DNA of 64,000 nucleotides from a virus (IMGVR_UViG_3300033069_001491:1-64000), one strand, 5' to 3'; counted from the stretch's first letter, positions 2,247-60,714 are shown. Made by a program: numbers and translations. Notes: generated from the letters alone by a model not told the origin.

Positions 2247-2549
2247 CTAGTCGGGTTGAAAGACAAGTGCCAGTGGCACGCGATTGGCCTCTGCCTCGGT
2301 GACCTGACCCATTGTGGGTCGCCAACCGTCCGCCCAAGCCTGGCGCCGCGGAGCAGCCCACAGGCGGGCGCACCGATCACAGCACTCGAATTGCGTGTAG
2401 GCGACCTCGTCCTCCCTCGAACGCATCACGTGAGAGCAGACTGGACACGCTAACGGGACGGCAGGTTCAGCACCGACCGGTACGATGACAACGAAACCCT
2501 CAGGCCTGTCTTCAATCAGCCTGTCGCGGAGGTACGGTCTTTGGGCCAC
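2247..2549 (-). CDS. Small Cys-rich (zinc-binding-like) hypothetical protein
   Basis: CPVC...CCDRC motifs, ending WADGWRP; TACGAT 5 nt before the GTG start. Confidence 0.7.
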   Translation of the reverse strand: MAQRPYLRDRLIEDRPEGFVVIVPVGAEPAVPLACPVCSHVMRSREDEVAYTQFECCDRCARLWAAPRRQAWADGWRPTMGQVTEAEANRVPLALVFQPD

Positions 2550-5134
2550 GTGTCATCGTACATCACTCGAGCATCGTTCTCAAAGCGACCCACCTCAATG
2601 ACGTGGTCTGCGACGTCCTTGATTCCCTCGACGTGGGTGATGACGATGATGATCCTAAAGTACCGCTTCAATGACGTCAACAACCTGTTACAGGCCTCCA
2701 CGCCCGTCGGGTCGAGCGGGCCAAAGGCCTCGTCGATGATGAACATGTCGGTCTTGGGAAGAGAGGTGACGTTGATCAAGGCAACCCGAATGGCAATAGA
2801 AGCGATCGTCTTCTCCATGCCTGAAGCTAGCTCAATGATCCGACGACTGTCGCCGTAGTCGATGTAGACCTCCATCGAGTCGCTATCGTCATCCTGCTCC
2901 AATTCAACAACAAAGCCGACGATGCCGCCCAGGATCTGAGCAATTTCAGCATTGATAGCCGGCAACTGCGATGCCACGATCAGGTTGGGGATACCTCTGC
3001 GAGAGTAGGCCTGGGCAATCAGCTCGTGGACCTTCATCGCCTGCAACACATCGTGTCGATTGCGACGGTCAACCTCCATCTTGGCAAGGTCAGACCGCGT
3101 CTGACCTGTTTGGGTGGCCAGTTGCAGCTTCTCAGCGTCGAGGCGTCGAGCGACACGTTGCAGGGTGTCCAACTTGTTTCGCAAGGTAACGACCTCTGCA
3201 TTTTCTTCATTGCGAAGAGCTTCCTCGAGCTCAGACAAGCGACGTTGCCCGTCTGACAACCTTGACTCTGCTAGACCTAGGTCGTGTTCCTTGCGATCAC
3301 GGTTAATCTCCAGGCGAGCGACTTCGGTGCCCAAAGTAGAGCACAGGCTCTTCAATTGCTCTAGCTTGGCTACCCGACCTGCCAAGTCGTCAGCACGGAG
3401 GCCAACCAACGCGTCCTCTGCTTCCTGGACCTTGTCAAGTGCCTTCTGAACGCGGTCCCGTTGTGGGACGACCTTGTCCTTCTGCTTGAAGGCGTCCTTG
3501 ATGAACTTGCATCCCGGGAACGAGTCACCACACGGCACGTCGTCAAGAATCTTAAGAGACTTTTCCTGTTGCTTTAGCAAGGCAGCATCCCGCTCATGGG
3601 CTGCCTTCAAGGTTCCCAGCGACGATTCCAACGCCCGGAAGAATTCGAGGCGCTTCTTGAAGGCAGCGACATCGTTGTCAGCCAGGACGTCATTGACCTT
3701 GTGAACCTTCTGTTGCTTGTCGACGATCTGCCCGTTGATGGTCGCAATCTCATTGCGAAGACGCTCCACCTGGTGTGTAGCATCATCGACCCAACTACGT
3801 TGTTGGTCGACCTGCGTCTGGGTGACAGGCTTGAAATCCTTGAAGGCAGCCAGCTGAACCTGAACGTCGGTCAAGTCATGCGATGACTGGTGCAAAAGCT
3901 GGTCGCGTTCCCTGATCTTTACCTCATTGTCGGCCAGCGCCTTGAGGTACGAGGTCTCCAGCTTTTGCCAGTCGCGATCAGGTAGTTGCTTCAGGCTGGA
4001 CTTGTTAGTATTGACGTCGAGCTTGGCAAGCTCGTGCATCCTGTCAAAGATGTCAAGATCCAAGAACCGAGACAGGTCCTTCCGACGTTTGGTTGTCCCC
4101 TGATTGATAAACAACTTGACATCATCCTGCGCGGCGACTGAAGTCAACAGGCAGTCCTCCGCCGTTCCGATCAACCGGCGAATCACCTTCTCCGTGTCGT
4201 TCCGTTGTTCACCTGCCAGGTCATGTGCTGTCCCGTCTTCAGCGATGCGAAAGGCATTGAGCTGGGTACCCGCGTACGTCTGGCCTTTCTTTGTCTCATA
4301 CCTGACGGTCTGACGTTCCAGGGAGTGATTAGTCCCGTTTACGTTGACGACCGAACGAGCGTAACAGTACGGATGCCTGACATTGATGACGTGCAGATTC
4401 TTGACGTTTCCACGGTCTGTCGTGTTGAACAGGCCGTACAACATAGTGCCGACGACCGACGACTTGCCACGGGCATTGGGACCAAAGATGCCGACGACAC
4501 CTGACAGCTGGTCGAAGTTGATGGCATTGCCCTTGCCGTAGGCAAAAGTGTTGTCCCACGCCATGTGACGCAACGACCACTTAGTGTTGCGAACCACGTC
4601 ATCGCCATCAAGAGCCTGTTGCAGGTATGCAGCGACTTGATCCTTGACGGCCGCCCACTCGTCGTCTGTCAGGTTGGTATCCTTGTGGTATTCCCTCAAT
4701 AGGCGCATTAGGACGTCAGGATTGCGTAGGTCTTCCTTGAGAAGGGTCGTCGTGCCGGCCGAGATGACGTCTCGATTTACACGGCGCTCACTCTTGAAGG
4801 TAACCTCCATCGCCTTCATCTCATTGCGCAAGGCGAGCGTCAGTTGGGCTACTTCTTTCTGTGGAAGTACGTCGCGGCTCCTGATGCGGAATCGGGCCCC
4901 TGTAACATGGGAGCGTGCCAACGCCAGCGTGGCCTCGACAGAATTTGCCCAGTCGACAGTGACGAAAGGCCGTGGATTGGGCAGTTCGCAGAACTTGACG
5001 TCGAACGATTCGCGGCTCGCGATGTCCCACAGCAGGAACCCGTGCCGCAGCTCTTCGGCGTAGTTCTGCTGGACTGGGCTGCCCGGGTAGGCGATCCAAC
5101 CTCTTTGGGCACGAATGCGAAGCTTTTTGCTCAC
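2516..5134 (-). CDS. sbcC: C-terminal part of Mre11/SbcD nuclease fused to a full Rad50/SbcC SMC-type ATPase
   Basis: Probable start is GTG 5134, overlapping the endonuclease stop (GTGA). It begins MSKKLRIRAQRGWIAYPGSPVQQNYAEE..GFLLWDI (SbcD C-terminal motifs), then Walker A GPNARGKSS, coiled coil with VPCGDSFPGC hook, signature LASGMEK, Walker B FIIDEAFGPLD and H-loop VITHV. Confidence 0.9.
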   Translation of the reverse strand: MSKKLRIRAQRGWIAYPGSPVQQNYAEELRHGFLLWDIASRESFDVKFCELPNPRPFVTVDWANSVEATLALARSHVTGARFRIRSRDVLPQKEVAQLTLALRNEMKAMEVTFKSERRVNRDVISAGTTTLLKEDLRNPDVLMRLLREYHKDTNLTDDEWAAVKDQVAAYLQQALDGDDVVRNTKWSLRHMAWDNTFAYGKGNAINFDQLSGVVGIFGPNARGKSSVVGTMLYGLFNTTDRGNVKNLHVINVRHPYCYARSVVNVNGTNHSLERQTVRYETKKGQTYAGTQLNAFRIAEDGTAHDLAGEQRNDTEKVIRRLIGTAEDCLLTSVAAQDDVKLFINQGTTKRRKDLSRFLDLDIFDRMHELAKLDVNTNKSSLKQLPDRDWQKLETSYLKALADNEVKIRERDQLLHQSSHDLTDVQVQLAAFKDFKPVTQTQVDQQRSWVDDATHQVERLRNEIATINGQIVDKQQKVHKVNDVLADNDVAAFKKRLEFFRALESSLGTLKAAHERDAALLKQQEKSLKILDDVPCGDSFPGCKFIKDAFKQKDKVVPQRDRVQKALDKVQEAEDALVGLRADDLAGRVAKLEQLKSLCSTLGTEVARLEINRDRKEHDLGLAESRLSDGQRRLSELEEALRNEENAEVVTLRNKLDTLQRVARRLDAEKLQLATQTGQTRSDLAKMEVDRRNRHDVLQAMKVHELIAQAYSRRGIPNLIVASQLPAINAEIAQILGGIVGFVVELEQDDDSDSMEVYIDYGDSRRIIELASGMEKTIASIAIRVALINVTSLPKTDMFIIDEAFGPLDPTGVEACNRLLTSLKRYFRIIIVITHVEGIKDVADHVIEVGRFENDARVMYDDTWPKDRTSATG

Positions 5135-6051
5135 AAAGAACGTCCCATAAAGTTCACCAGATAGACGTAACCGTGCAACGGACACCAAATCCGAGCAGCA
5201 GAACACTTTGCGTCATGCTGCGCCTGATCGATGACGTAGCCCTTGACTTCCTCTATGACTTTAAGGCCATCAACGCGCTCGATCAGAAAATCCGGAACGT
5301 AGTTTTTGTCGCGGCCAGCGTGTTGATACGGGACGACAATCCCGTGTCGCTTTGACCAACGTTGGACGTCAGGATCTGCGTCGAGCTCTTTCATACGCCT
5401 GAGCTCGTACGAGCTATGATAAAACTCTTTTGCACCAGTTTTTGTCGAAAGATGCCAGCCACGCTTGAATCGTTTACCATGAGCACAGATCGCATCGATG
5501 ACATCATGAGCTTTATCGCCCTTGCTCCAGTGCGATTCCTTGATTTTGTTGGCCCATGTCACCTGCCGACCCATAAGAAGTCGGCTCATGTGCGCTCTCT
5601 GCTCCTTTGACCAGAAACCCACAGGTGTCCGCCAACCCTTGCCATCAGCGTTCACCTTTGTAATGTTTCGGCTGCCAATTTCACGCAATTTGTCCTTCAG
5701 ACCAGGTCGACGTTCGAACTTGTCAACGGCCGCCTCACGCATTAATTTCTGACATGTGGCGGTCGCCAATGGTCCACCGTGCTTGTCAACGTATTCATCA
5801 GGCGTCAATCCGTGAACCCTGACATGTGATGACAAGTTCTGCATCTGGCGGCCACACGCCATACACGTTACCGTCTCGCCAGCAATTTCATTCTTCCTTC
5901 GTTGGTGTTGCAAGTTACAGTGTCTGAGTCCGACACCGTGCCGCTTCCTGATCCTGTTGACGTCTTTACGCTTGATACCGTACTTCGTCAAGAGATCACG
6001 CTCTGGCATCCCAGCCAGATAATCTGCTAGCACTTCTGCTTCAATGCTCAT
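5131..6051 (-). mobile_element. Free-standing TnsA-like PD-(D/E)xK putative homing endonuclease inserted in the sbcD-sbcC gene
   Basis: N-terminal HTH-like segment and C2H2-like CMACG...SHVRVH; C-terminal HSSYEL..M..LD..YVPDFLIE..EEVKG nuclease domain. Confidence 0.8.
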
Positions 6052-6082
6052 GCTTCAAAGGTATATCACCCAATGACAAAAG

Positions 6083-6736
6083 TTACAGTTCTTCGATAAC
6101 TTCCGCACCAGGGTACTTAGAAAGGTCTTGAGCGTCAATGATCAGTTCTGAAGAGCGACTTCCGAGAATTTGGAGGCGATGAATATCACCAAGAAAACAG
6201 AAGTCAAACCGTTCGAAGAAGTCGACGGTCAGGCCTTCTTCGATCGACCAATCACTCTCGGTCAAGGCACCTCGCACCGGACCGTGGTAGCAGGCAATGT
6301 TGACCTTACCGGGCATCGGTTCCACAGAACGCCAACCCTCTTCGTCGAAGAGGCTGAAGATACACCAGCAGTAACCCGGGACGAACTCGTAGGTGCCACT
6401 CTTCTTGTAGAGATGCACTCGCGGATTGCGAAGGGCATTAACGATCGGAGTGACGGCATCCTGCCTCGACAAGTTCATCAGGTTGCCGTCATGGTTGCCG
6501 AGGGTGAGATGCACCTCTGCGACGTCAGCCATCACCGTCAGCCACCAATTCAACTGTTCAATGTACTCAGGAGACAGGCCTGACGTCTTGGTGTGGAAGA
6601 TATCACCGCCCACAAAGATGTGTTCGGCTCCCGACTGCTTGACTTGCTCAACGAACACCGAAAAGACCTCACGGTACTCATCGTGCCGTGAAAGTCCACG
6701 CCAGTGCACGTCTGCGATATGGGCGATCCTAATCAT
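6083..6736 (-). CDS. sbcD: N-terminal fragment of Mre11/SbcD metallophosphoesterase nuclease
   Basis: HIADVH, GGDIFH, LGNHD, HGPV and LGDIH motifs. The YPGS motif that normally follows is in the downstream ORF at 5134. Confidence 0.9.
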   Translation of the reverse strand: MIRIAHIADVHWRGLSRHDEYREVFSVFVEQVKQSGAEHIFVGGDIFHTKTSGLSPEYIEQLNWWLTVMADVAEVHLTLGNHDGNLMNLSRQDAVTPIVNALRNPRVHLYKKSGTYEFVPGYCWCIFSLFDEEGWRSVEPMPGKVNIACYHGPVRGALTESDWSIEEGLTVDFFERFDFCFLGDIHRLQILGSRSSELIIDAQDLSKYPGAEVIEEL

Positions 6737-6788
6737 GCAACACTGGCTGTGATGGTAAACTCAGATCTTCTACTGTACAGATCTAGTC

Positions 6789-7781
6789 TCAGAAACGAAC
6801 TACTGACGCATGTGTTAGCTTGTCGAAGAACGTCAGGTGCCAGTCGAACGGCCGGGCGGCCTTCAAGGCCTCTCTGATCTCCTGCTTGGTGACGTCACCT
6901 GGGTCCGTTGCCACCTCGACCAGCGTCACATCGATGTTGTAGTCCGCCAGCTTTCGAGCCACCCGAGGAGCCTTCGTCAACCTCATGTCAGCATCGAGAG
7001 CCAGCGCCACCGGCGTGCCATGAGCGACGATGGCGTTGAAAAGGGCAGACTCTTCGTTGAGGTCACTGCCCAACAGAGGCACTGCGTTATCACCACACTT
7101 CATCAGGTCGAAAGCGCCTTCACAGATCACCAACTTTCGGGACCAGTCAAGATTGATCTCGTTGAAGATGACCTGCCTGCGGTCTCCCTCCGGAGACTCA
7201 TACTTGGGCTTACGTCCCCTGTCGATCGTCCTGCCGACGAAGTGGTTCAAGGCGCCGTCCCTATCAAAGGACGGCATGATGACACGACGATGCCACGTAG
7301 CCTCGTTGCTGTATCCCAACTTGTAGTACCACAAGTCATCGTCGCTAACCCTGCGTTGTGTCAGGTAACGACGCATGGCAGCCACGTCAGGATCCCGGCT
7401 GCGTGAAGTGGCGAACAGCTTGAAGTCCTTTGGCAGTTGGACAGGTAGGGGAGGTGGCAAGTCTCCCGTGATGATGACACATCGGGAGTGCCAAGTCGAG
7501 GTGCCGGCAGGCATGAAGCGCTGCACGTACTCCTGCAGCTGTGATAGCGTGCCGTACTTTCTGATCAGTGGAGCCAGCGTCCTGCTCTTGTAACCGCAAA
7601 CCCAACAATGGCAACGGTCGTCCTCTGTGAGGATTGCTAGCTTCTTCTTGTCAGGTGGAACGGAGCCTTTTTCGAGGCACACTGGACACCGTACGTCGAA
7701 GTTCCTGCAGTTGCGAGCCATCCGACCCGAACCGAAGACCGACTCGTAGAACCTTACCTTGTCAGTGAGCGTGACAGCCAC
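6789..7781 (-). CDS. DNA primase (zinc finger + TOPRIM)
   Basis: CPVC...CHCWVC zinc finger, RVIMPSFD..G..HFVGR, ICEGAFD and ALDAD TOPRIM acidic motifs. Confidence 0.85.
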   Translation of the reverse strand: MAVTLTDKVRFYESVFGSGRMARNCRNFDVRCPVCLEKGSVPPDKKKLAILTEDDRCHCWVCGYKSRTLAPLIRKYGTLSQLQEYVQRFMPAGTSTWHSRCVIITGDLPPPLPVQLPKDFKLFATSRSRDPDVAAMRRYLTQRRVSDDDLWYYKLGYSNEATWHRRVIMPSFDRDGALNHFVGRTIDRGRKPKYESPEGDRRQVIFNEINLDWSRKLVICEGAFDLMKCGDNAVPLLGSDLNEESALFNAIVAHGTPVALALDADMRLTKAPRVARKLADYNIDVTLVEVATDPGDVTKQEIREALKAARPFDWHLTFFDKLTHASVVRF

Positions 7782-8461: not shown

Positions 8462-8854
8462 CTAAAGCAGCCCCATACCCTTCAATTCGTACTCTGTAAT
8501 GAATTTATAGGTGGCTCCGTGTTCCTCGCACCACCGTTGACCGGCCAACATCTTCTTTTTAACAATAGCTTGTTGCAACTTCTTGCTGGGCTTCACCTCG
8601 ACCAACCAGCGACTGCCGTCTGCCATATTGACCAAGAAATCTGGAAAGTAACGACGCGTCTTGCCAGAGCGCGTGTTGCTAACGTACGTGATGGCGACTG
8701 ACTCGTAGCCGTAGCTGGTGACTGACGATTCCACGTCGAACCATTGCATCAGCAAAAGTTCCCAACCCGAGCGGTACTTGCAAGGGCCACCCGACTTGGA
8801 CGACTCGTGGATGCCCGTGTGGTAGCCTCGCTTCCTACGTCTCCTAGCTGCCAA
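8462..8854 (-). CDS. Stand-alone TnsA-like nuclease, likely head-completion nuclease (T4 gp4-like)
   Basis: YRSGWEL..M.WFD..SV..Y.YE..Y..RRYFPDFLV..LVEVKP; 130 aa with no extra DNA-binding module. Confidence 0.75.
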   Translation of the reverse strand: MAARRRRKRGYHTGIHESSKSGGPCKYRSGWELLLMQWFDVESSVTSYGYESVAITYVSNTRSGKTRRYFPDFLVNMADGSRWLVEVKPSKKLQQAIVKKKMLAGQRWCEEHGATYKFITEYELKGMGLL

Positions 8855-10003: not shown

Positions 10004-10834
10004 TCAGATAATCAACAACGCGCGCAGGTCATCGCCCGTCAGCGTCCGGTAACGGGTGACGTTGTTCTCAACGCACCACGCTCGTGTGGCCTCCGACTTC
10101 AGCACGTTTTTCTCGCTGCCGATGAATTCAACGGGTTTCACCTCCCACAGCTCCCGATGACCGTCGACGAAGGTGACCATGAAGTCGGGCACGTACCAGC
10201 GCTTGTGACGATCGTAGACGTACGGGATGCGGACACACTCGTAGTCCCAGTCGACAACGAAGGGTGCCATGTCGAGCCATCGCATCAGCGACAATTCCCA
10301 GCCCGACTTGTAGAAGTGTTCCCTCCCGGTCTTGTTGGACCGATGGTCGCCCTTCTTAGAGTTGCCACCGTAAGGCCGCTGCTTGCCGACCAACAGCAAC
10401 AACGAGTGTTTGTCTGACATGGCGTCTTTGGACGAGTCTCTGTGCTTCCTGCCGTACATCCCGTTGTTGGGACCCGACACGTCGGCATGATTAGCGCTCA
10501 TCTTCTGCTTGGTCTCGTCGCTGTGCTGGCGACCCTGCCACGGGTGGACGTAGCCGGGCTGTTTCATCCGCTCGACGACAGACTCACTGATCTTCTGCGC
10601 CGCCGCTGGCGTATGCATCATTGCCGTGTTGTCAGCGTACAGTTCTGGGTGCCGCGACCGGAAGCTACCGTAGCACTTTCTCGAGCAGAACTGGCCCCAC
10701 TTGTGGTCGTTCATGTACGATTGCGTGTACTGTCGCTCGAATTTTCCACCACACGAATCGCACTGTAACACCAGGATGCGCTTGGGCTTCGACGGACGAT
10801 AGGCGTTCGGGCCGTCTTTGATCTCTAGAAGCAT
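10004..10834 (-). mobile_element. TnsA-like putative homing endonuclease with zinc-ribbon and NUMOD3-like repeats
   Basis: CDSCG..FCSRKC, HSDETKQKMS / MYGRKH NUMOD3-like repeats, YKSGWEL..MRWLD..YE..YVPDFMV..WEVKP. Confidence 0.8.
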
Positions 10835-14164: not shown

Positions 14165-14509
14165 CTATGATGCTACGTCGTCAAGCAAGTTGACAAGTTC
14201 TTGATCAAGCAGCTGAATGAGTCGAGGTGCAAGCACCTTGACGAAGGTTTCTGCTTCAGGTAGCTGTTCTGCCACGCCAGAATCTTCCAAGCATGCGTGG
14301 ATCAGCTCATGCAGCACAAGCTCTCGCTTATGATCATATGTCAATCTATTTCTGACGATGATCACATCGTCATCATAACTGATGACGCTTTTCACTGACG
14401 ACGGATCATCGCAACCCTTGGCCACAACGCTATCGAATGACTCATCATCAACAGCGACCACACAGTACGTCCTAGATCCGACCTTGATGGTGTTTGACTG
14501 CTGTGTCAA
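14165..14509 (-). CDS. Small HExxH metallopeptidase-like protein
   Basis: ELVLHELIHACLE motif; probable TTG start at 14509 after GGAG (track start 14527). Confidence 0.65.
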   Translation of the reverse strand: MTQQSNTIKVGSRTYCVVAVDDESFDSVVAKGCDDPSSVKSVISYDDDVIIVRNRLTYDHKRELVLHELIHACLEDSGVAEQLPEAETFVKVLAPRLIQLLDQELVNLLDDVAS

Positions 14510-15377
14510 AGTCTTCTCCGATCTCACGTTTCATTGCGTCAATTTCAACGTTGCCTAGTACGACATATTTGGCACCGGCCGCGGCGAGGGCCTGCTTTGT
14601 CAGATCCAACTTCTTGCTCACCTCGGGCAATGCCTGAATAGCAGTCGGTTTGATCTCGACAATGACTTCTTGGCCATCAACGTACCTGACGAGGAAGTCT
14701 GGAATCGTCCGTCGCCCATCGGATAGGACGATGACATTAGGTTCGTATTCGTATGACAATACATCATTGCTCCTGTCCCAGTGCATCATTGCCACCAATT
14801 CCCATGATGACTTGAACTTGACAGGCAACGTTGCCTTCGGACTGCAATGCGTTCCTGTCACGTGGCCGGTCTTGTACCCAGACACGCCATCGAGCACACG
14901 TTTGACAGCGGCACGTGAGTAGTTGTCACGTTGCTCTTTCGTCAATGTATCAGACGTGTGTCCAAAGTTAGGATTGTTGGCACCACGGTGCGTGCTGGCT
15001 CCTGCCTGAAAGCGTTCTTTCAGACTTTCTGAAACCTTTGCACCCAATCCAGCCAGGCGCTCATCTGTCTTTGCTGTCAACCCGCGGTTCCACGCTGTCC
15101 TACCAAGCATGGACCCTGGCTTGCCGAACATCCCGTTGTTAGGGCCACTGTTTGAACAGCGCTTGCCGCAAAAGCGCTGTTCCTTCCTGACGAACGAAAC
15201 GGTAAATTCGCAACCGCAGAACTCACACGTCTTGGTGACGTCTGGCTGCCGCGTCTTACGGGTGCTCAAAAAACACGGATCGTAGCTGCAGTACCTCGCC
15301 GAGGACACGCGAGATGCAATGACCTCAAATTCCTTGCAGCACACCTCACACAGTTTCTTGATCCGCTCCTTGGCCAC
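14472..15377 (-). mobile_element. TnsA-like putative homing endonuclease with zinc-ribbon and NUMOD3-like modules
   Basis: CEVC..YCS, CEFCG..FCGKRC, NPNFG repeats, FKSSWEL..M.WD..YEYE..TIPDFLV..VEIKP; TATAAT 6 nt before the GTG start. Confidence 0.8.
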
Positions 15378-59976: not shown

Positions 59977-60714
59977 GTGTTTCTCCGACAGTGTCCTAAT
60001 TGTGATGCAGATATCGTCTATGCGTCTCACAAAACCTACACGGTGGCATGTAGACGACGTACGTCGTGTATTTCGTGCAGATCAAAACAACGTAGAGCGA
60101 AATACTCTCATCACAGTGATGAGACTCGAGTAAAGATGTCAGTTTCTCACTCGGGTGAAAAGAATCACTTCTTCGGTAAAACCCACTCTGAACTCACTCG
60201 TCAAATCATCGGTGTAAAGACAAGGGAGCGAGATCAAAGCGGAAAACGCAATCCGTTTTTTGGACGTCAACATTCTTCTGAGACACGCACGCGAATGTCA
60301 AAAACACGTGCAGACGGTCTCGCGTCAGGTCGCATCATTAACACCAACGAGTATGGTAACAAGTCATGGTACGTCTCCAGTAAGACGAATGAAAGGGTGC
60401 GATGTGACTCTACGCTTGAAAAATTCCGAATGATTCAGCTCGATCGAGATGTCACCGTAAGTGATTGGTCGAAGCGACACGGAATCAAAATCGCCTATCT
60501 GTTTAATGGTGAGGTGAAACACTACGTGCCGGATTTCCTGATCACTACAATTACAGGTGAGAAGATCCTAGAAGAAGTGAAGGGTTATGATGTTAAAGCA
60601 TCTCAAAAGTACCAAGCACTTCAGAAGTACTGCGAAGAGAATTGTCTGACCGCTCGATGGATCACGCAAACAGAACTCGAACGGCAAGGTTATCGTAACT
60701 TCAAGGAAAACTGA
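59977..60714 (+). mobile_element. TnsA-like putative homing endonuclease with NUMOD3 repeats
   Basis: HSDETRVKMS, NHFFGKTHS, NPFFGRQHSSETRTRMS; CDSTLE..M..LD..YVPDFLI..EEVKG; TATGAT-5 nt-GTG. Confidence 0.82.

Follow-up and report, generated by a model that had tools for sequence, protein, structure and literature searches.

We describe a stretch of 64,000 nucleotides (nt) from a virus (IMGVR_UViG_3300033069_001491, positions 1-64000; hereafter the window), in which the gene of a fused SbcD-SbcC (Mre11-Rad50) protein lies in two pieces with a TnsA-like endonuclease gene between them. Our best explanation, to which we assign a probability of about 0.7, is that the single-chain SbcD-SbcC enzyme is encoded in the window in an inherited form of two genes that still works, that the endonuclease was inserted secondarily, and that the lineage of this endonuclease probably made and spread the fracture. 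The IMG/VR record is a 73,013-nt fragment with a CheckV completeness of ~20% and therefore comes from a very large phage.

The split gene, its single-chain relatives and the age of the split

Three consecutive open reading frames (ORFs) on the minus strand of the window encode the N-terminal piece of SbcD, the endonuclease, and the remainder of SbcD joined to SbcC (Table 1). A preliminary description of this DNA had stated that the first ORF carries the SbcD motifs through LGDIH and then stops, and this is the case: its 217 amino acids (aa) end in ..LGDIHRLQILGSRSSELIIDAQDLSKYPGAEVIEEL, followed by TAA, 31 residues past GDIH. This N piece matched Pfam Metallophos (expectation value (E) 6.5e-11) and the SbcD-like phrog_100 (E 1.2e-16). 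The third ORF (C piece) was also as described, the rest of the nuclease continuing into a Rad50/SbcC ATPase; the frame is open from GTG 5134 to 2516 (872 aa, N-terminus MSKKLRIRAQRGWIAYPGSPVQQNYAEE), and the match to the SbcC-like phrog_77 (E 8e-42) covers residues 188-873 of an 896-aa ORF. Walker A/B motifs and a coiled coil, which characterize Rad50/SbcC, are represented by the matches to AAA_23, SMC_N, SbcC_Walker_B and phrog_77. Note that the start of the C piece in relatives corresponds to 5134 and not to the upstream GTG 5206. The N and C pieces share one frame, and the endonuclease ORF (6051..5131) has its own start in another. The 31-nt spacer upstream of this TnsA-like gene and its downstream GTGA, in which the stop TGA (5133..5131) overlaps GTG 5134, had likewise been described correctly.

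When the region was compared with 50,697 phage records using blastn, no match was obtained, and relatives were therefore gathered by protein-level searches. Using tblastn against phage records, we found one 1066-aa coding sequence in Microcystis phage Mel-JY01, directly downstream of primase as in the window, and one 1202-aa ORF in the uncultured phage LR756501. A search for longer relatives yielded at least 1177 metagenomic proteins, nearly all of ~1045 aa, that match the N piece, and the fused state was present in 85 of the fetched loci. Thus, unbroken SbcD-SbcC is the normal form in this group, in agreement with the single-chain ancestor assumed in the preliminary description. That description had also proposed an alignment to uninterrupted homologues; against Mel-JY01, LR756501 and the fused loci L013-L029, the break in the window mapped between ..GDIHxxQxLxYRD and (G)KPWIxYPGS..QQNxxE. 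The two ORFs are colinear with the N- and C-terminal parts of a protein that relatives make as one chain.

The same split occurred in close relatives that possess no endonuclease at this position. All ten close relatives among the IMG/VR loci (L004-L012 and L026; N-piece identity 71-85%) were split at the same codon, with no endonuclease between the pieces, and shared with the window the tail ..RDVELVIDExDLxKYPGAEVIEE at the end of the N piece and the head MSKvRIKxxxPW at the start of the C piece. The stop of the N piece and the start of the C piece overlapped as GTGA in L004, L005 and L007, as ATGA in L010 and as TTGA in L011 and L012; in L006 the stop abutted the start, with an in-frame TGA alone between the pieces, and in L026 one base lay between them. 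N-piece-sized proteins (~215-219 aa) numbered at least 410 at 66-85% identity, and endonuclease homologues numbered 15.

Removal of 952 nt (5133-6084) from the window yields ..EVIEEL-stop with a CT-GTGA-GC overlap, as in the endonuclease-free relatives; the limits of this insertion were read off by direct inspection, and a MAFFT DNA alignment to L004 and L007 had misplaced the tail. The endonuclease is thus present or absent at a single site, as a 952-nt insertion in the window and with none at the same junction of L004 and L007. In a tree of 36 host genes, the window fell into a monophyletic split clade (support 98 in the Shimodaira-Hasegawa-like approximate likelihood ratio test, SH-aLRT) nested among fused forms; no other member of this clade bears the endonuclease, and the sister of the window is L004 plus L007, which lack it and are 84% identical. 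Note that the trees were quick searches with SH-aLRT support only. For a homing target the closest endonuclease-free relatives should be unbroken, but L004, L007 and the eight others are split. Because ten endonuclease-free relatives are split at the same point, the gene was split before the endonuclease of the window came. We concluded therefore that the split is older than this copy, which is a clean insertion in an already split allele. The preliminary description had attributed the split to the endonuclease and had named endonuclease-free homologues split at the same place as evidence to the contrary; the ten close relatives are such homologues. What holds of that claim is that the break lies inside the nuclease fold, after motif V; the resident copy was not the cause.

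Some variation was observed around the junction itself. In L009 (6630-6965), an unrelated 111-aa ORF fills the junction in place of the endonuclease. Further, the last ~35 aa of the N piece were only 44-48% identical between L004 or L007 (L004:6540-6680, L007:2230-2370) and the window (5099-6190), and the first 12 aa of the C piece (measured over the first 25 aa) were ~72% identical, compared with 84-100% for the remainder, forming a junction-proximal mosaic tract. We sought a co-conversion tract around the endonuclease and found that the window departs from L004 and L007 just at the junction. Other relatives share the tail of the window, so that L004 and L007 are probably the ones with the odd tract.

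Table 1. Features of the split sbcDC locus in the window.
Feature	Position	Strand	Details
sbcD-N piece	6083..6736	(-)	217 aa; phosphoesterase motifs I-V (DVH, GGD, GNHD, YHG, GDIH); TAA stop
Acidic C-terminal tail of N piece	6086..6151	(-)	22 aa, residues 196-217; net charge -5; absent from short-hairpin fused homologues
Leader of endonuclease gene	6052..6082	(-)	31-nt spacer
Insertion relative to endonuclease-free split alleles	5133..6084	(-)	952 nt, leader plus endonuclease ORF; TGT at both flanks
Free-standing homing-type endonuclease (predicted)	5131..6051	(-)	306 aa; AlphaFold2 model pLDDT 86, TnsA best structural matches
Ros/MucR-type zinc finger	5761..5898	(-)	endonuclease residues 52-97; C63 and C66 invariant
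TnsA-like PD-(D/E)xK nuclease domain	5152..5475	(-)	endonuclease residues ~193-300; E216, P253-D254, E268, K270
sbcD-C + sbcC piece	2516..5134	(-)	872 aa from GTG 5134; start overlaps endonuclease stop
Basic N-terminal head of C piece	5099..5134	(-)	12 aa (MSKKLRIRAQRG); net charge +5
Rest of Mre11/SbcD part	4535..5098	(-)	last core strands (WIAYPGSPVQQNYAEE), capping domain, helices
Rad50/SbcC ATPase with coiled coil	2519..4534	(-)	Pfam AAA_23, SMC_N, SbcC_Walker_B; phrog_77 E 8e-42

Function and fold of the two pieces

Insertions within enzyme folds usually inactivate the enzyme, and the locus might accordingly be a functionless pseudogene that was broken by a selfish element and is decaying. 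However, the ratio of nonsynonymous to synonymous substitution rates (dN/dS) between the window and L004 was 0.064 in the body of the N piece, 0.089 in residues 13-200 of the C piece and 0.103 in the rest of the C piece, with dS >1; the catalytic motifs are all intact, and hundreds of homologues share the same split. We consider a pseudogene hardly credible. Both pieces are under purifying selection and, as far as their sequences indicate, functional.

The preliminary description had suggested that the nuclease active site is rebuilt in trans from the two proteins. This was not borne out, as all five metal-binding motifs (phosphoesterase motifs I-V) lie in the N piece, in invariant columns, and the metal ligands are not shared out between the pieces. 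The extra ends of the two pieces are nevertheless conserved. The tail was kept in 119 of 120 N-piece homologues, with E at 83%, I at 91%, D at 84%, L at 90%, Y at 92%, P at 96% and A at 97% at its conserved positions. In all lineages examined, the tails were negatively charged (-3 to -10, mean -6.1) and the heads positively charged (+1 to +6, mean +4.4).

The fold was examined by joining the N piece of L006 to C residues 1-200, reading through the in-frame TGA, and modelling the product with AlphaFold2 (AF2). The joined model (mean predicted local distance difference test score (pLDDT) 85.4) matched the whole of E. coli SbcD (6s6v, 7yzo and 4lu9; Foldseek E ~5e-14), suggesting that the nuclease fold is completed by the C piece, which also brings the capping domain; within the model, the N piece adopts the fold of the N-terminal part of E. 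coli SbcD. With motifs I-V in the N piece and this match of N plus C(1-200), the nuclease is assigned to Mre11/SbcD. The break falls inside the nuclease fold, where a beta-hairpin comes after phosphoesterase motif V, and lies at the tip of this hairpin. In the tail, the model has a long strand (188-201) and then a short helix and another strand, and the head forms a long strand (222-235), all at pLDDT 87-92; this suggests an extended beta-ribbon built from the tail and head of both chains, with the pairing of the strands read from the secondary-structure string and pLDDT only. From the sequences and the model we infer that the two polypeptides must reassemble into an enzyme. The two chains would do so without splicing, held by a beta-ribbon in which the tail pairs with the head of opposite charge; the tails of Aeh1 NrdA have a similar role.

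Alternatively, splicing (by a group I or II intron or a split intein) or recoding (by translational bypass or frameshifting) could rebuild a single chain. The common frame of the N and C pieces in the window and the separation of the L006 pieces by an in-frame TGA alone would fit such a process. However, just 31 nt at the junction of the window are non-coding, and endonuclease-free junctions comprise 0-4 nt, except in L136, where a spacer of 67 nt contains a ribosome-binding site of its own. Further, frames and stop/start types differ among relatives, and no recoding signal is therefore conserved. Restoration of one chain is in our judgement very improbable. A permissive Rfam scan of 4500-7000 detected no intron family (the best hits, E 2.5 and 7.9, were to unrelated families), which accords with the statement in the preliminary description that the junction leaves no room for a group I ribozyme core.

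Individual candidates of this kind were rejected as follows. A group I intron is contradicted by the absence of a ribozyme core in the Rfam scan, by the 31 nt of non-coding DNA and by the endonuclease-free relatives, which are still split. Frameshifting or bypass is contradicted by the variation in junction types and frames. In split inteins, the N-intein comprises ~80-100 aa from a Cys/Ser, and the C-intein comprises ~35-40 aa ending in His-Asn and followed by Cys/Ser/Thr. The tail of the window comprises 22 aa and begins S-E-L-I, and the head comprises 12 aa and ends R-G-W, with no first Cys/Ser or terminal His-Asn. A scan of the 31-nt leader yielded no promoter or terminator match, and a local hairpin over the stop of the N piece was no better than those of shuffles (z -0.54).

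The endonuclease and the same junction in distant lineages

The endonuclease combines two domains. Its residues 52-97 matched Pfam ROS_MUCR (PF05443, E 1.8e-7) and the Ros structure PDB 2jsp (E 0.013 and 0.008), and residues 226-297 matched Pfam TnsA-like_N (PF08722, E 3.8e-5) at 24.6 bits, just below the cut-off of 26.5 bits, which was passed by endonuclease homologues and by a paralogue in the window (60.4 bits). There was also a match to the endonuclease family phrog_15427 (E 2.5e-15). Residues S213, E216, P253, D254, E268 and K282 were invariant and K270 nearly so (at least 90%). The best Foldseek matches of the AF2 model (pLDDT 86) were TnsA structures (9bw1, 1t0f and 1f1z; E 1e-4 to 7e-4, root-mean-square deviation 3.5 A, ~128 columns), with 1f1z at E 7e-4 and 3.5 A over 129 columns. 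By its sequence and its model, the endonuclease belongs with the TnsA-like N-terminal PD-(D/E)xK nucleases (E, D, ExK set), and its predicted catalytic residues E216, D254, E268 and K270 are intact. A scan of viral contigs with the single endonuclease sequence detected no relative, and a scan with alignment A1 yielded relatives. We found no paper that describes a TnsA-like, zinc-finger endonuclease family with the behaviour of homing endonucleases.

Assignment to the EDxHD (Vsr-like) family was considered and rejected. I-Bth0305I is the prototype of the EDxHD homing endonucleases, a family reportedly described by Taylor et al. as well as Dassa et al. There was no Vsr or DUF559 match in Pfam, no match to the I-Bth0305I sequence in PDB and no Vsr in the fold search, and the EDxHD set is also contradicted by the invariant E...PD...ExK.

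Four more ORFs in the window contain a TnsA-like PD-(D/E)xK domain (8462-8854 (-), 10004-10834 (-), 14472-15377 (-) and 59977-60714 (+)). The first, of 130 aa, is syntenic in all close relatives, ~2 kb upstream of sbcD-N, and for this reason is probably resident and not mobile.

Related endonucleases were found between acidic-tailed N pieces and basic-headed C pieces in LR756508 (L002), L032, L033 and L111, and the N piece of L002 is only 33% identical to that of the window. L136 and L175 are also split and have a tail of this kind, but no endonuclease. In the second, Mel-JY01-like clade, 68 of the 80 sampled loci were fused and had a short hairpin. A profile of 118 tails of the window clade, with 500 shuffles as the control, scored 17.6 bits in L082 and 13.6 bits in L002, and none of the 500 shuffles scored as high; the score was weak in L136 and L175 (reached by 1 of 500 shuffles each), and L032 gave no score. 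On the host-gene tree, constraining the split alleles to one clade cost 681 log-likelihood units (p = 5.6e-49 in the approximately unbiased test), the tested group having been named after the tree was seen. The split alleles are polyphyletic on this tree and a single origin is rejected. In the endonuclease tree, a single group of 16 (SH-aLRT 89) took in all junction copies and excluded the other paralogues of the window. Taken together, the shared junction, homologous tails, polyphyly and grouping of the endonucleases point to a lineage tied to sbcDC that carries the fracture, tail and head between lineages.

Several other arrangements were observed near this gene. In L082 (4977-5189), a 70-aa ORF between the tailed N and headed C pieces matches only the last 60 residues of the endonuclease; from its sequence it appears to be an endonuclease copy decaying in place. 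Endonucleases of the same family also lie between the primase gene and the start of sbcDC (L031:5097-5882, L110:543-1352 and L113:611-1408), the L031 and L110 copies inside the junction subgroup and the L113 copy outside it; sbcDC is unbroken in L031 and L113, and L110 ends before the hairpin. This boundary looks like a second preferred site beside the same gene. In L032 (3800-8990) and L033 (3800-8730), sbcDC is in three pieces, ordered as the N piece, the endonuclease, an ORF of 83-103 aa, a middle piece of 74-77 aa, a 180-aa ORF with EKIVEK-type repeats, and the last 793-797 aa. L062 (7707-8600) is split at the same hairpin, with a tail of only ..YREFEE and a ~170-nt spacer before the C piece.

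Origin of the fracture and comparison with known systems

In the history that we propose, the endonuclease lineage would have specialized on the sbcDC gene, probably fractured the gene of an ancestor and spread the fracture to other lineages. Most descendants may then have lost the endonuclease, their two pieces remaining coupled in translation, and some of these pieces would later have been re-fused with the tail and head kept as an in-frame scar. That the fracture itself originated with such a cassette we hold to be slightly better than an even chance.

Single chains with this structure exist. Proteins P0137, P0179, P0186 and P0241 (1076-1077 aa) contain the tail and the head in one frame, joined by a short linker, and the distance from GDIH to YPGS is 49-50 residues, compared with the usual 19 or 24. 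P0138 and P0148 are shorter versions, and intermediate distances of 35 and 31 residues also occur. P0137, P0179 and P0138 were nested among split alleles with support of 98, 100 and 92; this placement favours pieces that were re-fused once the endonuclease had been lost, the scar being eroded afterwards. P0138 has the appearance of a deletion in which the stop, the start and the YPGAEV segment were removed, and P0138 and P0148 look like steps in the healing of a fracture.

The same proteins permit the opposite order, in which a 30-aa in-frame extension of the hairpin came first, indels broke the gene at its tip, and endonucleases and small ORFs settled there later, the endonuclease never having made the split. 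The four long-hairpin single chains and the 31- and 35-residue intermediates are what this order would leave, P0241, P0148 and P0186 lie at or near the base of the split clade, the endonuclease of the window is a secondary insertion, and the L009 junction holds its unrelated ORF. In contrast, a long hairpin was absent from all 68 fused loci that were sampled in the Mel-JY01-like clade, yet split alleles with homologous tails are scattered through this clade, and an endonuclease or its remnant is present in five of the seven. Further, P0137, P0179 and P0138 are nested among split alleles, and P0138 resembles a deletion. We regard this order of events as unlikely.

Our preferred reading, a fracture made and spread by the endonuclease lineage, has several points against it. 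P0241 and P0148 are basal in the split clade and P0186 is just outside it, so that a long hairpin in one chain may have existed before any split. The support for the group of junction endonucleases is only moderate (SH-aLRT 89). The L006 model is covalently joined, which favours the proximity of the tail and head. Moreover, homing between genes with 25-35% protein identity would need illegitimate recombination.

A stronger version of the preferred reading, to which we give somewhat less than an even chance, is that the fracture itself is mobile: a TnsA-like cassette carries or generates matched, oppositely charged beta-strand ends that keep the broken Mre11 fold together, and so would invade and split the sbcDC genes of distant phages at no cost. 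If this is true, the whole life cycle is on view, namely invasion, fracture, decay (L082), loss of the endonuclease that leaves the pieces coupled (in the majority of the window's clade), re-fusion that retains a scar in frame (P0137 and P0179) and erosion of the scar (P0138 and P0148).

The nearest known system is a locus from Lake Gatun in the Global Ocean Sampling data, in which an SbcD-like gene is fractured by a free-standing endonuclease with no intein (Dassa et al., 2009; PMC2677866). Its upstream ORF has 25 additional C-terminal residues and its downstream ORF 9 additional N-terminal residues, which are absent from other SbcD-like proteins; the 3' end of the endonuclease gene overlaps the downstream gene, the endonuclease was assigned to the Vsr-like (EDxHD) type, and loss of the endonuclease with return to a contiguous gene was modelled (Dassa et al., 2009; PMC2677866). 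The order of N half, endonuclease and C half and the downstream overlap are shared with the window, and the extra residues (25 and 9 aa there, 22 and 12 aa here) are similar, so that, judged by tail and head sizes alone, the break point may be the same. In contrast to the Vsr-like enzyme of that single locus, the endonuclease here is TnsA-like with a Ros zinc finger, and the split affects an SbcD-SbcC fusion, is fixed in a clade mostly without the endonuclease and recurs in distant lineages. Thus, the principle is not new, since the report of 2009 already describes an SbcD-like gene that is fractured and has tails of this size; what is new is the SbcD-SbcC fusion as host, the TnsA-like endonuclease family, the clade-fixed split without endonuclease, and the polyphyly with apparent re-fusions.

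In Aeromonas phage Aeh1 (nrdA-a/mobE/nrdA-b), the endonuclease gene also lies between two halves of an essential enzyme, between adjacent beta-strands, overlaps the downstream gene and is flanked by unique tails. The Aeh1 tails are thought to have been born with the mobE insertion and are essential for activity, and it was proposed that tails born with mobile-element insertions may generally neutralize the fragmentation of essential genes (Crona et al., 2011; PMC3045599). Unlike the endonuclease of the window, MobE is an HNH enzyme, and the active-site residues of NrdA are divided, whereas here all metal ligands are in the N piece. Further, Aeh1 is a single case with experimentally shown function; here the tails occur across hundreds of sequences and several lineages, and their function is predicted. 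The proposal of Crona et al. was made from Aeh1 alone, and the present locus and its relatives constitute a far larger natural data set, with hundreds of split alleles, a conserved acidic tail and basic head, distant recurrence with and without the endonuclease, and scarred re-fusions. They also provide a natural two-piece Mre11 fold, broken after motif V, the assembly of which is open to experiment.

Genes fractured within split inteins (Dassa et al., 2009) have the same order of N half, endonuclease and C half, with a negative N end and a positive C end. In contrast, the ends here are of 22 and 12 aa, without intein halves or splicing residues, and no ligation is therefore expected. Finally, the endonuclease resembles TnsA of Tn7 in its predicted fold and in the catalytic layout E...PD...ExK, but occurs without TnsB, TnsC or a transposon context and has a Ros/MucR-type zinc finger in its N-terminal region. 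In contrast to TnsA, its gene is a present-or-absent insertion at a single site. The locus adds an endonuclease family, TnsA-like and with a zinc finger, whose behaviour resembles that of a homing endonuclease.

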